Of a stretch of DNA of 64,000 bases, positions 27,307 through 47,026 are shown piece after piece. The stretch is from Acidobacteriota bacterium. GTDB lineage: Bacteria > Acidobacteriota > UBA890. The DNA is taken from assembly GCA_965214245.1 (NCBI GenBank), contig CBDCBL010000009.1, positions 15,551 through 79,550 of the forward strand. Direction: 5' to 3'. Made by a program: the position numbers and the translations under genes. A model generated the notes under the pieces. The model saw nothing but the letters and a program-made list of their open reading frames with translations, had not been told where the DNA came from and did not search any database. Position 1 is the first letter of the stretch, and each line of letters starts with the position of its first letter.

Positions 27307-28686
<1,380 letters not shown>

Positions 28687-28740
28687 TCAAGAACGGCGAA
28701 GCTCCGACAAGTTGCCGAGGCTGTTGCCGTCGTAAGTAGA

Positions 28741-28768
28741 TCCATGACACTTTCACCACGGCCTGCTA
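28741..28768. repeat. 33-bp inverted-repeat family, degenerate A-form copy (tCCATGACACTTTCACCACGGCCTGCTA)
   Basis: It ends 13 nt before the DUF2065 start codon. Upstream DNA resembles the interior of the family's other copies. Confidence 0.6.
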
Positions 28769-28781
28769 GCATCGACGCACA

Positions 28782-28982
28782 ATGGACTGGCAGCTCATAT
28801 TGCTGGCCTTGGGGTTGGCGTTGATCATCGAAGGGCTGCCGTACTTTCTGTTTCCCGTGGGGACGCTCCGGACTCTCCGTCAGCTTGAGAGCCTCGGCCC
28901 CGAGGCGGCCCGGTTTTTGGGCCTCGCGGCGTTGATTGCCGGTCTCGTGCTGCTCTTTGTGGGAAGGCTGGCGGCGGGGTGA
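28782..28982 (+). CDS. DUF2065-family small membrane protein
   Basis: MDWQLILLALGLALIIEGLPYFLFP... is 66 aa. It is bracketed by A-form (28741-28768) and B-form (28980-29013) repeats, and its TGA stop is the first 3 nt of the B repeat. Confidence 0.6.
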   Translation: MDWQLILLALGLALIIEGLPYFLFPVGTLRTLRQLESLGPEAARFLGLAALIAGLVLLFVGRLAAG

Positions 28983-29013
28983 GCAGGCCGTGGTGAAAGT
29001 GTGATGGGTCTGG
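28980..29013. repeat. 33-bp inverted-repeat family, B-form copy (TGAGCAGGCCGTGGTGAAAGTGTGATGGGTCTGG)
   Basis: It contains GGTG-N8-ATG. The ATG at 29004 is the likely start codon of the downstream HEAT-repeat lipoprotein. Confidence 0.7.
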
Positions 29014-29759
29014 TTGAGGTGAGGCGGCTCCCACTGGTTGCTGGGATGGTAGCGGCGCTCGCCGCCGGTTGTGCGACGGCCGACCCGACACCCGCTGTCG
29101 TGAAGCGGATCATCGATGAGCTCAGCACCCAACAGTTCGGACGCGCCACGGCGTTGTACACCGAGCGGGAGGAGATGGTCCTCAGCCCGCCCGCGGCGCC
29201 CGGTTGGCGGCGCGGCATGGATCACGAAGACGCGACCGTTCGCGAGTGGTCGATCGACGCCCTCAGCCGCATCGCATTGCCGGAAGACGTGCCTCTCGTC
29301 GTCGCGGCGTTGGACGATCCCTTCCGGCGGGTTCAGGAGGCGGCGGCGCAGGGCCTCATCGACATGGACCCGGTGGCGGCGCGCGTCGCTTTCATCGACC
29401 GTCTGTCGGAGGGTGACCCGAGGCAACAGACGATTGCGGCGCAGGGCCTCGCCGATCTGGGCGATACGGAGGCGGTGCCGGCGCTCGTCGGGCAACTCAG
29501 CGACGAACGGCTCGCCGCCGGGTTGCGTGGCGTGATCGCGCAGTCGCTGTCCCGCCTCGGCGATGTTCGCGCCGTGGAGCCCCTCGCCGCGCTGGCGGGC
29601 AACTCGGATGCGGATACGCAGTTGCGACGTACGGCCGTCGAGGCGCTGGCCGGTATCGAGGGCGAGGCGACGGTGCGGGCTCTGGAGAGCTTGCTGGAAG
29701 CGGACGACTCCTATGTCCAGGACGTTGCGCGGCGCGTCCTCGACGCGCTCAAACGGTAA
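29004..29759 (+). CDS. HEAT-repeat (PBS-lyase-like) probable lipoprotein
   Basis: The signal sequence is MGLVEVRRLPLVAGMVAALAAGC. The body has repeated ...AxxAL..IGD..AVP.L...L motifs. Confidence 0.6.
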   Translation: MGLVEVRRLPLVAGMVAALAAGCATADPTPAVVKRIIDELSTQQFGRATALYTEREEMVLSPPAAPGWRRGMDHEDATVREWSIDALSRIALPEDVPLVVAALDDPFRRVQEAAAQGLIDMDPVAARVAFIDRLSEGDPRQQTIAAQGLADLGDTEAVPALVGQLSDERLAAGLRGVIAQSLSRLGDVRAVEPLAALAGNSDADTQLRRTAVEALAGIEGEATVRALESLLEADDSYVQDVARRVLDALKR

Positions 29760-33267: not shown

Positions 33268-33282
33268 TTTCCGAGCTCTAGC

Positions 33283-33315
33283 AGACCCATCACACTTTCA
33301 GCAGGGCCTGCTCAA
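33283..33315. repeat. 33-bp inverted-repeat family, solo variant A-form copy
   Basis: GCAGACCCATCACACTTTCAGCAGGGCCTGCTC sits in the divergent tsaB/mutS intergenic region. Confidence 0.6.
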
Positions 33316-36660: not shown

Positions 36661-36701
36661 TCGGCACGTGAGGTCAGGTTAGGGCAAGTGTAAACAGGCC
36701 C

Positions 36702-36900
36702 TAGCAGGCCGTGGTGGAAGTGTGATGGGTCTGGCGCGCCCGCAACCCCCACGCGCGCCCCTGCGGGTTGCGACGACAAAAGGCCATCTGCGGCGTTGCC
36801 GCTCCTCGACGATGTATCAACATCGCCGTAGTCGCGGCGCCTTGCATCTGGCCTCTTGTCGTCGCAACCAGACCCATCACACTTTCACCACGGCCTGCTA
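36702..36900. mobile_element. MITE/REP-like element (199 bp) with perfect 33-bp terminal inverted repeats
   Basis: TAGCAGGCCGTGGTGGAAGTGTGATGGGTCTGG ... CCAGACCCATCACACTTTCACCACGGCCTGCTA. The interior is hairpin-rich and 95 bp of it resemble copy 46402-46681. Confidence 0.75.
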
Positions 36901-36942
36901 GGAGGGGGAACCGTTCAGCGCGTCACGCTACCATCGGGCGCA

Positions 36943-44478: not shown

Positions 44479-44619
44479 CACTCCCGAGGTGCCCGTTTGC
44501 AAGCGCGCTGCCCGTGGCCGCAGTGCATTGCGCGTCACGTAGCGGAATCGCTATACTGCTTGTGCTTCAGGGGCGAAGGTTGTCAAGCCAGTGTGGGGGG
44601 GCGCGTCGGGAGACGTGCC

Positions 44620-46404
44620 ATGCCGAAATCGACAAGACGTTCGTGTGTTCCGCTGACCTTCGCGATAATGCTCTTGCTCGCCGCGCCTTCCGCGGCCGTT
44701 TCTTCCTCGCCGCAGGAGCTCTTCGAGCGCGCTGAAACGCTGTATCGGCAGCTCGAGGTCGTGGATCCCTCCGGCGAAGCCGCCTCTTGGGCTCGAGTAA
44801 CGGATGCTTTCGCCGCTGTCGCGACGCGCTACCCTGACAGCCCGCTAGCCTCTGAAGCTCTGTGGCGGATGTCGTGGATCTACGGCCGCCAGGGTCGGGC
44901 TGGCGACCCCGCCTCGTCGGCACGCCAACTCGAGCTGTACCGGGAGCTGGTTCAGCACTATCCAACAAGCCCGCACGCGCCTGAAGCCTTACTCCGGTTG
45001 GCGGCGGATGCCGAGGGGGAGGGTGGGGCCCGCGCCGCGGTGCTCTATTCCCGATTGCTCCAACAATATCCTTCGACGCCACAGGCTTCGCTGGCCCGGA
45101 ACCGGATGGCCGGAGTCATCCGCGCCAATCCCGATGCCGATCCAGCAACGGTGACGACCGGAGAGGCTCCGCGGAGACCGGCGCCGAGCGTGCCGGAGCC
45201 TGAACGCCGGCTGGCAGCTCCGGCGCCCGGTTCCGAAGCGGAACAGCCTCGCCCATCGACCGACAGTGACGTCGCGGACAACCTCGCCGTGCTCAGCGGT
45301 GTCCGCTACTACAGCGACCGCACATACACGCGGATCGTGCTCGACCTCGATCGGTCGGTGACCTACCAGACCGGCGAGGCCCATTCCCCGGAGAGGTTAT
45401 TCGTCGATCTCAAGGGCGTCGGCAAACCTAAAGACTTGCCGGGAGCTCGGCCTTCGGGACGCGAGCAGGTTATCGCTGTCGATGGCAACGCGGTGTCGCG
45501 TGTGCGCGTCGCCTTGAACCAGCCCGGCATCGTCCGCGTGGTGATCGACCTTGCCCAGACGTCGAAGTACACGATGTTCACGCTCGACAAGGTGGACGAG
45601 CCGTTCCGCATCGTCATCGATGTGCCGACGGCGACGGTTGCGTCGCGCCTTCGCGATGAGCGCCGGCCGGCGCAGCCGGAGGGCGGGTCGATAACCGAGC
45701 AGCTCGGCCTCGGGGTGCACCGCGTGGTCATCGATCCGGGGCATGGTGGCACCGACCCGGGGGCCATCGGCCGCACCGGAGCTACCGAGAAAGAGCTGGC
45801 GCTGGCGCTGTCCCAGACGCTCGCGACGCGTTTACGAGAGAGCGGCTACGAAGTCATCTTGACGCGCGACGAGGACCGCACGGTGTCGCTGCAGGAGCGC
45901 ACCGAGTTCGCCAATCGTGTCGACGCCGATCTTTTCATCTCGATGCACATAAACTCGGCGCGCAATCGCAAGCTGCGTGGTTTCGAGACGTACTATCTGA
46001 ATCTTGCCAACGATCCGACCGCGGCCGAGGCCGCAGCGCGCGAGAACGCCGCCGGGCAACGCGGCAGCATGGGTGATCTGCAAGAGACGCTGGAGCTCAT
46101 CGTCAGTAATGAGTACCAGGGGGCTTCGGGAGAGCTCGCCGCGTCGATTCAGGACAGCCTGGTGATGCACGTCTCGAAGAACTACCAGAACGTGCACGAC
46201 CTGGGCGTCAAGACCGCGCCCTTCTTTGTGCTGGTGGGCGCCGAGATGCCGGCCATCCTGATCGAGGCCTCGTTCGTGAGCAACGAACAGGAAGAGGCCT
46301 GGCTGAAGAGTAGCGACTACAGAGTTCAGGTGGCCGAGGCCATCGAGATCGGCCTGCAGAGCTATGTCGACAAGCGTCGGGTCACGGCTCAGAGGGGTCG
46401 CTAG
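44620..46404 (+). CDS. N-acetylmuramoyl-L-alanine amidase (AmiC-like) with N-terminal TPR-like and AMIN domains
   Basis: A signal peptide is followed by ...VVIDPGHGGTDPGA...FISMHINS.... The TAG stop is the first 3 nt of the MITE-like repeat. Confidence 0.8.
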   Translation: MPKSTRRSCVPLTFAIMLLLAAPSAAVSSSPQELFERAETLYRQLEVVDPSGEAASWARVTDAFAAVATRYPDSPLASEALWRMSWIYGRQGRAGDPASSARQLELYRELVQHYPTSPHAPEALLRLAADAEGEGGARAAVLYSRLLQQYPSTPQASLARNRMAGVIRANPDADPATVTTGEAPRRPAPSVPEPERRLAAPAPGSEAEQPRPSTDSDVADNLAVLSGVRYYSDRTYTRIVLDLDRSVTYQTGEAHSPERLFVDLKGVGKPKDLPGARPSGREQVIAVDGNAVSRVRVALNQPGIVRVVIDLAQTSKYTMFTLDKVDEPFRIVIDVPTATVASRLRDERRPAQPEGGSITEQLGLGVHRVVIDPGHGGTDPGAIGRTGATEKELALALSQTLATRLRESGYEVILTRDEDRTVSLQERTEFANRVDADLFISMHINSARNRKLRGFETYYLNLANDPTAAEAAARENAAGQRGSMGDLQETLELIVSNEYQGASGELAASIQDSLVMHVSKNYQNVHDLGVKTAPFFVLVGAEMPAILIEASFVSNEQEEAWLKSSDYRVQVAEAIEIGLQSYVDKRRVTAQRGR

Positions 46405-46681
46405 CAGGCCGTGGTGAAAGTGTGATGGGTCTGGCCGCGCGGGTATTGTAGTCGAGGGCAAGGAGCGCCGACACAGGCGATGCCGGAGCCATCGTCGAGG
46501 AGGCGCGACGCCGCCATCGGCTGCAAGACGCGCGCGCCCGGAGGGTTGAGGCGAGGAGGGGGCATCTGCGGCGTTGCTGCTCCTCCACGATACGTCAAGA
46601 GCATCGCGGTCGTCACAGCGCCTTGCATCTGCCCCCTTCTCGCCTCAACCAGACCCATCACACTTTCACCACGGCCTGCTA
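46402..46681. mobile_element. MITE/REP-like element (280 bp) with 33-bp terminal inverted repeats, exactly filling the gap between two convergent stop codons
   Basis: TAGCAGGCCGTGGTGAAAGTGTGATGGGTCTGG at 46402-46434 and its reverse complement at 46649-46681. The terminal TAG and CTA triplets are the stop codons of the flanking genes. Confidence 0.8.
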
Positions 46682-47026
46682 GGGCCAGTAGGTCGCACTG
46701 AAGCCCGCCGCCTCGCCGATTTCGACGTGCAGGACCTCTGTGCCCGGCAGCTCGCGATCGAGCAGCTCGGCGAGCGTGCGCGCCACCTCCTCGGCGGTTG
46801 GGTTCACCGCATCGAAGGGGGGAACGTCGTTGAAGCAAGCACCCTCGTGACGGGTGACCCACGCGTCGAGGACGGCGCGGGCTTGTACGGCTGCTTCTTC
46901 CGCCCGCGCCGAGCGCAGTGATGCTTTGATGCGCCAGTTGTGAGCGTGCAACGGCTCGAGCGTGCCGCGCGAATCGATGCGAATGCGATGTGTTGCCGGA
47001 AACTCGGCGGCGAGACAGAAGATCAT
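46679..47026 (-). CDS. 6-pyruvoyl-tetrahydropterin synthase / QueD-family protein
   Basis: It has the ...LHAHNWRI... His motif and is 115 aa. Its stop codon lies inside the repeat terminus. Confidence 0.6.
   Translation of the reverse strand: MIFCLAAEFPATHRIRIDSRGTLEPLHAHNWRIKASLRSARAEEAAVQARAVLDAWVTRHEGACFNDVPPFDAVNPTAEEVARTLAELLDRELPGTEVLHVEIGEAAGFSATYWP

Follow-up and report, generated by a model that had tools for sequence, protein, structure and literature searches.

Why a small gene should be enclosed at both of its boundaries by inverted copies of one repeat is the question raised by a locus in a 64,000-nucleotide stretch of contig CBDCBL010000009.1 of an Acidobacteriota bacterium (assembly GCA_965214245.1), which was analysed over its full length and is termed the window below; positions are those of the window unless a relative is named. 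The gene in question encodes a DUF2065 protein of 66 aa (28782-28982, plus strand; Pfam PF09838, E = 6.5e-15) and is followed on the same strand by the gene of a HEAT-repeat lipoprotein (29004-29759; Pfam HEAT_2, E = 8e-21). The same 21-nt core, ACACTTTCACCACGGCCTGCT, stands on either side of DUF2065, at 28747-28767 on the plus strand and at 28982-29002 on the minus strand, with 0 mismatches: the initial annotation had described the gene as flanked by the outer faces of two elements, and this was borne out. The upstream repeat (A) and the downstream repeat (B) are two orientations of one terminal inverted repeat (TIR), 34 nt long, which belongs to a multicopy family of MITEs (miniature transposable elements with inverted repeats). 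For the locus as a whole we consider it likely, with a probability of about 0.8, that the stubs of two MITE insertions explain what is seen, with A contributing to the promoter of the DUF2065-HEAT operon and B providing the start codon of the lipoprotein gene.

The TIR core is present in 7 copies in the window (≤3 mismatches), as against 0.00 expected from 100 shuffles. The TIR of the family reads CTAGCAGGCCGTGGTGAAAGTGTGATGGGTCTGG, with GCAGGCCGTGG.. termini, and full copies measure ~280 bp. Two copies in the window are complete and have CTAG on both sides: E1, of 201 bp, in the DedA-anmK intergenic region (36701-36901), and E2, of 282 bp (46401-46682), whose left TAG is the stop codon of an amidase gene (44497-46404). 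A third solo TIR (33282-33312, 94% identical to the TIR) lies between tsaD and mutS. A matches the TIR with 96% identity over 28742-28769 and the full element with 90% identity over 28730-28769 (BLAST), and it can be followed by eye back to ~28722, which makes it the stub of one MITE end at 28722-28769 with its outer terminus (..CCTGC-TA-G) towards DUF2065. A degenerate repeat ending 13 nt before the DUF2065 ATG had previously been placed at 28741-28768; it is indeed present, but is longer and ends in a CTAG (28766-28769) 12 nt before the ATG at 28782. B is the stub of a second insertion at the DUF2065 stop codon and likewise turns its outer terminus towards the gene, its 38 nt (28982-29019) agreeing at 38/38 positions with the right end of E2 in reverse complement. 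The DUF2065 TGA (28980-28982) had been read as the first triplet of a repeat at 28980-29013: it does overlap the position of the element's flanking TAG, but B itself runs from 28982 to 29019. By repeat search, the A and B arms were delimited as 28738-28778 and 28971-29011 (41 nt, 83% complementary).

Beyond the window, a scan with a 23-nt TIR pattern and one genome per species matched at least 105 stretches; where the titles among the matches listed name a taxon they are all Acidobacteriota metagenome-assembled genomes (MAGs), with a few given only as 'uncultured bacterium'. The counts used here (42 pairs, 161 copies, 168 ends) come from the loci among these listed matches. The 42 convergent TIR pairs span 47-282 bp, mostly 276-282 bp, and as short, non-coding elements they all fall under the limit of about 600 bp by which MITEs are recognised. 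Most TIR positions are conserved in >95% of the 161 copies, and the full element can be aligned to itself in reverse complement, and hence forms a long imperfect hairpin or palindrome. Shorter derivatives measure 169-216 bp, and the minis of 47-67 bp are barely more than two TIRs, from which it is evident that members of this family often lose their interior by deletion until little but the TIRs is left; solo ends 34-40 nt long are also numerous at other loci. Five of the minis consist of two partial TIRs head to head (L014 4823-4889, L031 5184-5237, L036 5881-5943, L039 5154-5200 and L102 2331-2397). A subfamily with CTAGGAGG.. at one end and ..CCTCCTAG at the other was seen at L006, L023, L033, L057, L058, L059 and L090, the same TIR position being altered in both ends of each copy; such a paired change would be expected if both ends had to match one transposase, or if a variant master copy had been propagated.

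Comparison of relatives for presence or absence of the repeats, as proposed in the initial annotation, returned loci without A (L003, L110, L112, L113 and L114) and loci without B (L001, L110, L112, L113 and L114). The contigs of these relatives were chosen via close orthologues of the HEAT protein, and the gene order purA-DUF2065-HEAT-asd-like-pssA-psd is conserved among them. In L004, whose HEAT protein is 94% identical to that of the window, A and B are both present, B as in the window. L001 (93%) has A with more of the element interior kept, and at the position of B reads TAG-GAGCGGTCATGGC-ATG..GCC-GTG-AGG. L003 and L117 (88%) have B, with about 80 nt of the element kept, and no A. L110 and L112 (82%), L113 (57%) and L114 (59%) have neither repeat, the DUF2065 and HEAT genes overlapping in L113 and lying 2 nt apart in L114. 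Unrelated ancestral sequence is found at the A position in L003, L110, L112 and L114, and L001, L110 and L112 carry TAGGAGCG..ATG..GCCGTGAGG where the window has B. The arrangement is not an assembly artefact, since it is the same in the independently assembled L004. Over four genes, the DNA identity is ~92% between each two of the window, L001 and L003, and ~97% between L004 and the window; given this near trichotomy, the presence of A without B in L001 and of B without A in L003 makes A and B two independent insertions. Each was later trimmed to a stub, and they were sorted or recombined among the lineages; neither precise excision nor parallel insertion is needed to account for the A-only and B-only genomes given the near trichotomy.

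These loci also bear on the proposal that DUF2065 is the cargo of a composite or inside-out transposon, or lies on a segment inverting between the two copies. A near-perfect inverted pair of 28-nt arms does bracket the gene, and L096 likewise has a gene between outward-facing ends. However, the order purA-DUF2065-HEAT is the same in relatives, including distant ones, that have no repeat at all, A and B have separate origins, and the two termini are turned towards the gene, which is the wrong way for cargo, as a transposase would not move the segment between them; in addition, six of six relatives with DUF2065 have it in the same orientation, and no recombinase gene is adjacent. Cargo was thus refuted on the native position of the gene, the separate origin of A and B and the direction of the termini, and we regard cargo and inversion alike as barely credible. 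DUF2065 is, judging from synteny, native to the locus: its DNA is 88-98% identical among relatives, and with or without repeats it is in place in all syntenic relatives examined except L116. In that more distant relative (1286-1500) the gene has been lost between purA and the HEAT gene, and the TGCTAGGCT box is kept upstream. L115 is not syntenic.

Filled and empty orthologous sites were found at five positions, namely A, B, E1, E2 and the solo TIR at 33282. In L117, which is ~92% identical and syntenic over 21 kb, the sites of E1, E2 and the solo TIR are all empty, and L118 is empty at E1 and the solo TIR too; since the sites of both complete copies and of a third, solo end are empty in L117, the family is mobile. 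At the empty E2 site L117 has just one CTAG, the amidase stop; the site of the solo TIR reads CTCA, not CTAG, and so is uninformative on duplication. Beside E1, an extra 22 nt (ttagggcaagtgtaaacaggcc, 36679-36700) are missing where L117 and L118 have the empty site, and may be debris of an older insertion. An Rfam search of the window at the gathering threshold gave three tRNAs only and no match at the repeats, and no published description of this family was found under CTAG-target bacterial MITEs or Acidobacteria MITEs: as far as these literature and Rfam searches show, the MITE family is new.

What A could do for DUF2065 is constrained by its neighbour. Because purA (adenylosuccinate synthetase; 27307-28620, minus strand; Pfam PF00709, E = 1.6e-179; syntenic in L001, L003, L004, L113 and L114) is divergent from DUF2065 and bounds a 161-nt intergenic region, the DUF2065 promoter must sit within that region. 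The promoter scan gave one sigma70-like site in 28500-29200, ATGACA-17-TAGCAT preceded by TG (28744-28772, plus strand; 0.0 expected from shuffles), as the predicted promoter of DUF2065-HEAT; no terminator-like site was found by scan in 28500-29200. The -35 hexamer ATGACA (28744-28749) and the 17-nt spacer of this site are TIR-derived, and its extended -10, TG-C-TAGCAT (28764-28772), appears to be an ancestral box regenerated by the element terminus and the TA duplication. TGnTAGCATCG is invariant in 7/7 loci with the gene, 4 of them without the repeat, and ends 6-9 nt before the DUF2065 ATG; this box is probably the extended -10 of a leaderless mRNA. DUF2065 has no Shine-Dalgarno (SD) sequence (-1.2 kcal/mol, scored, as all SD values here, against a generic 16S tail, the organism's own 16S not lying in the window), and its ATG follows 9 nt past the -10: together with the divergent purA and the single promoter-like site, these features lead us to infer that the DUF2065-HEAT mRNA is leaderless. 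Read by eye, a candidate promoter of purA itself, TTGTCG-18-TACGAT (28683-28712, minus strand), lies in a block conserved out to L114 and matches 8/12 hexamer positions, the threshold of the scan being 9.

The following course of events would account for A. The element would have entered the TA of an ancient TGCTAGCAT box, the putative extended -10, and its end ..CCTGC together with the duplicated TA would have rebuilt TGCTAGCAT exactly; a later deletion would then have taken the distal part of the element along with old upstream DNA, leaving a TIR that gives the spacer and the -35 ATGACA, the latter sharpened by a C-to-G change. In sequence terms, A has lost the remainder of its element plus some 65 nt of the ancestral DNA upstream, and 48 nt of TIR now stand where L003 and L110 keep their ancestral upstream DNA. 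G28746, which makes the -35, differs from the base conserved in 160/161 other TIR copies, and this C-to-G change is common to all three A-bearing genomes. The three substitutions among these genomes all fall in the spacer, with the -35 and the -10 invariant. These observations fit a role of the A TIR as -35 and spacer.

The position of the predicted promoter also bears on a second proposal, in which co-transcribed A and B would form a stem of ~28-40 bp around DUF2065 that controls processing or translation of DUF2065 and HEAT. MITE TIR hairpins are RNase III targets in Neisseria. Folding of 28722-29030 pairs A with B (-161.8 kcal/mol, z = -6.6 versus shuffles), so the arms do pair if co-transcribed, and post-transcriptional regulation by MITEs is mentioned in a review (PMC10969869). 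The only promoter-like site, however, lies inside A, with the conserved -10 ending 9 nt before the ATG, and the divergent orientation of purA leaves no read-through into A; furthermore, L001 with A only and L003 with B only keep the operon intact, so that the pair is not required. A regulatory stem is therefore very improbable.

At the downstream site, the segment GGTG-N8-ATG noticed earlier is present exactly as described (GGTG 28992-28995, 8 nt, ATG 29004). The GGTGA at 28992-28996 and the GTG (29001) and ATG (29004) downstream of it all lie within B, and the frame open from 29001/29004 gives MGLVEVRRLPLVAGMVAALAAGC. The HEAT signal peptide reads MGLVEVRRLPLVAGMVAALAAG|C, with the Cys codon at 29070-29072; the N-terminus MGLVEVRR-LPLVAGMVAAL-AAG-C fits a lipoprotein signal by eye, with a positively charged n-region, a hydrophobic h-region and the Cys closing the lipobox, and has equivalents in 15 orthologues. 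The ancestral layout is seen in L001, where a TAG stop codon overlaps the SD TAGGAG (-12.4 kcal/mol) and an ATG 10 nt on opens M-W-AAIGTTRIAV-RRLPLVAA... In the window and in L004 the junction reads ..GGTTGAG|GTGAGGCGG.., and 11 codons have gone along with the former SD and ATG. For B we thus propose that the element entered at the DUF2065 stop codon, that a microhomology-type deletion joined about position 38 of the TIR to the HEAT gene just before the old GTG-AGG-CGG, taking the old SD (TAGGAG) and the old ATG with it, and that the lipoprotein is now most likely translated from the TIR ATG at 29004 (or the GTG at 29001) behind GGTGA. The inside-out geometry would follow if, on each side of DUF2065, only deletions heading away from the gene were tolerated.

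Four start codons come into question for the window. Behind GGTGA, the TIR-derived GTG 29001 and ATG 29004 score -9.5 and -7.9 kcal/mol, the latter being near the -7.4 of purA. GTG 29019 is a kept ancestral codon with only a gapped pairing that abuts the codon. The fourth, ATG 29046 (-2.7 kcal/mol), is the start of the 237-aa database entry P0001 and lies 8 residues before the lipobox Cys; it is ATC in L004, L001 and L003, the three nearest relatives, and all orthologues have a full lipoprotein signal, and so this annotated start is wrong. A start at ATG 29046 in the orthologues, which the initial annotation had named as speaking against an element-derived start, was accordingly not seen. L003 has a different junction, ..GGCGATGCG|CCCACTGG.., and offers no choice: both of its in-frame ATGs lie inside the element-homologous stretch (2949-3028 of L003), the first of them behind GAGGAGGGAGCAG (-13.5 kcal/mol), and there is no other start codon before the Cys. 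As every candidate start is within element homology, an element-derived start is obligatory in L003, and read from this genome it is certain. For the window the suggestion that the repeat donates an initiation region is plausible at the -7.9 kcal/mol of ATG 29004, but with GTG 29019 as an alternative it holds with less force, and we rate an element-derived start there as reasonably probable. Since the replaced n-region belongs to the cleaved signal peptide, the mature HEAT protein would be unchanged; the cleavage of the lipoprotein signal peptide at the Cys likewise makes N-terminal proteomics, which had been suggested as a check, blind to the HEAT start.

Several observations weigh against the two-stub explanation. 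The left junction of B reads GTGAG and not the expected GTAG, so that an extra 1-nt change is needed, and for L001 to have A alone and L003 B alone, lineage sorting, recombination, or else loss or parallel gain must be invoked. GTG 29019 has remained intact, was called as the start in L110 and would yield a valid signal of 18 residues (MRRLPLVAG..), and the values that rank it below ATG 29004 come from the generic 16S tail. The C-to-G change at 28746 happened once and was inherited by its carriers; promoters with an extended -10 can dispense with a -35, and the TIR-derived -35 may for this reason be irrelevant. Promoter use, transcription start and start codon have all been read from sequence, and no autonomous element with matching TIRs was found in 110 loci. 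Alternatively, the stubs could be neutral debris that contributes nothing: the ancestral extended -10 alone would drive transcription, the HEAT protein would start at GTG 29019, and the ATG and -35 of the TIR would be coincidental. From GTG 29019 through the next codons there is no difference from the ancestral sequence in L001 and L110, the gene caller picked the equivalent GTG in L110, empty-site relatives without a recognisable -35 still keep the box, and the inner end of the A stub shows decay. On the other hand, GTG 29019 is without a usable SD, its gapped pairing reaching -5.2 in L004; the ancestral start, to judge from L001, was most likely the upstream ATG behind TAGGAG, which is deleted in the window; the HEAT gene does run on an element-derived start in L003; and it is the spacer, not the -35 or -10, that varies among the three A-bearing genomes. 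We thus consider it unlikely, although by no means negligible, that the stubs are inert, and favour the reading in which both have been put to use.

That the repeats touch gene boundaries at all can be traced to the target site. The flank is CTAG in 102/168 ends, with C in 73% of ends, TA in 86% and 96% and the terminal G in 95%. The outermost flank base departs from consensus in 45/168 ends versus 8/168 for the fourth base (p = 2e-8), and from this asymmetry we deduce a TA duplication, element termini GCAGG..CCTGC and a preferred C-TA-G target; the duplicated length is itself a deduction, as CTAG is a palindrome. An IS5-like 4-bp (YTAR) duplication was first favoured from two copies with CTAA on both sides and was given up in view of the flank asymmetry, these two copies being 97.5% identical sisters with a common terminal variant. 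CTAG occurs 45 times in the window versus 207 expected from composition, the palindromes of equal composition GATC and TCGA occurring 485 and 746 times, and 21 of the 45 sites lie in a lower-GC stretch at 16-27 kb (about 60-62% GC) that might be foreign DNA. Because the target is scarce in the genome, insertions tend towards TAG stop codons and -10 boxes, and DUF2065 offered one of these on either side: the junction TAG closes an open reading frame of at least 150 codons in 58/168 ends (~35%), compared with 22 and 18 in control frames (p = 3.5e-7). As the element starts with G, a stop codon entered at its TA is restored as TAG, and given how frequent insertion into TAG stops is, the overlap of B with the DUF2065 stop is the usual behaviour of this family.

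In its choice of target, this MITE family behaves like IS630/Tc1-mariner elements. In the 110 loci covered, no transposase was found between matching TIRs (convergent pairs 0.5-4 kb apart), and a relaxed partner search (≤7 mismatches in 27 nt, 0.5-4 kb) gave two candidates with ordinary genes inside. Between these pairs, and between pairs in the same orientation at a distance of 1.2-1.5 kb, the genes encode an O-antigen-ligase-like protein, a glycosyltransferase, an M20 peptidase, LysRS and a permease. In MAG CBDFKO01, an IS630-type insertion sequence (IS) of ~1.2 kb, encoding a DDE_3 + HTH_32 transposase, abuts the terminal CTAG of a GGAGG-subfamily MITE, with an identical junction and relative orientation at five loci (L034 4385-5590, L057, L058, L064 and L090). 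The IS was rejected as the autonomous partner, its own ends being TA-GTCTCCTGTAWCAG and thus unlike the family TIRs; the adjacency could reflect repeated targeting of the CTAG of the MITE, or a composite unit being copied.

For annotation, the consequence at this locus is that the database start is corrected, the 237-aa entry P0001 being without a signal peptide. In evolutionary terms, the filled and empty sites show a CTAG-targeting MITE remodelling a small operon at its two ends in a lineage of uncultured Acidobacteriota, with the -35 and spacer of the predicted promoter on one side and the SD, start codon and n-region of the lipoprotein on the other being the parts that would have been swapped. 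The approximately five-fold depletion of CTAG and the siting of about one third of the ends on TAG stops give a mechanistic reason why these repeats touch gene boundaries, and the CTAG/TAG targeting may help annotators of Acidobacteriota MAGs. Because C-TA-G is where the element enters, and its own first base is G and its last three are TGC, its insertion rebuilds rather than destroys both TAG and TGnTAG, and one might see in the family a portable gene boundary that rebuilds TAG stops and TGnTAG extended -10 boxes; we put this forward as a speculative idea that we hold to be improbable. Were it to hold family-wide, the family would systematically furnish Acidobacteriota genes with new promoters and N-termini, and the HEAT lipoprotein would have recruited an element start twice, at different junctions, in the window and in L003. 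The element contains two inward SD-ATG modules, GGTGA-N7-ATG in the TIR and GAGGAGG-N6-ATG in the interior. The interior ATG opens a recurrent frame, MQGAAT(R/T)AM.. (L003 3001-3030; window 46560-46650, minus strand; L009 2975-3010), and it is this frame that supplies the HEAT start in L003. At other loci element ends are also found close before starts, with lysS beginning 8 nt after a CTAG and a permease gene right after a TIR, and an M20 peptidase gene is bracketed inside-out like DUF2065 with its stop on the flanking TAG (these cases being at L090 3264-3290, L096 5490-6954 and L050 4583-4626).

Comparison with known systems places the family among bacterial MITEs and sets it apart from each of the described groups. 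With REP/REPIN elements and their RAYT partners (PMC3733652) it shares a high copy number, inverted doublets and singlets and an intergenic location. It differs from them in having no tight palindrome of 20-40 nt, the TIR forming an imperfect stem of at most 6 bp, and no GTAG/CGTC head; instead, it has hairpins of ~280 bp and CTAG/TA flanks that fit cut-and-paste insertion by a DDE enzyme (RAYT genes were not searched for). On the stem and the flanks, an identity as REP/REPIN was rejected. A TA duplication within a preferred CTAG target is a hallmark of IS630. The deduced TA duplication in CTAG is thus shared with IS630/Tc1-mariner elements and their MITE derivatives, such as RUP of pneumococcus, and IS630-type DDE_3 transposases do occur in the same MAGs, inserted in the terminal CTAG of these MITEs; in the loci covered, however, the TIRs described here were not found on any transposase-bearing element, the co-resident IS having GTCTCCTGTAWCAG at its ends. 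Rickettsia palindromic elements fuse in-frame with host genes (PMC10969869), and the B stub resembles them in that element sequence would lie within a host reading frame; the difference is that here no protein is interrupted and the start, SD and n-region are replaced following a deletion, with two junctions in two lineages. Bacterial MITEs with outward promoters are well described, examples being Correia elements, MITEAba12, QMITE1 and BrickBuilt (PMC10969869). Like Correia elements (CREE/NEMIS), the family is short, non-coding, multicopy, bounded by TIRs, associated with a TA duplication and found beside genes, and as in these and other promoter-bearing MITEs its ends and flank are predicted to make outward sigma70-like promoters. 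In contrast to Correia elements, its sequence is unrelated, its TIR has 34 nt, its host phylum is Acidobacteriota and its target is C-TA-G; moreover, at DUF2065 a pre-existing extended -10 would have been regenerated while the -35 and spacer were replaced, and only a stub remains. No new class of mechanism is seen here, but rather a tidy, not unprecedented reuse of transposon scraps, and what appears distinctive is the regeneration of the extended -10, the siting at stop codons via CTAG and the replacement of a signal-peptide start region twice by different deletions.

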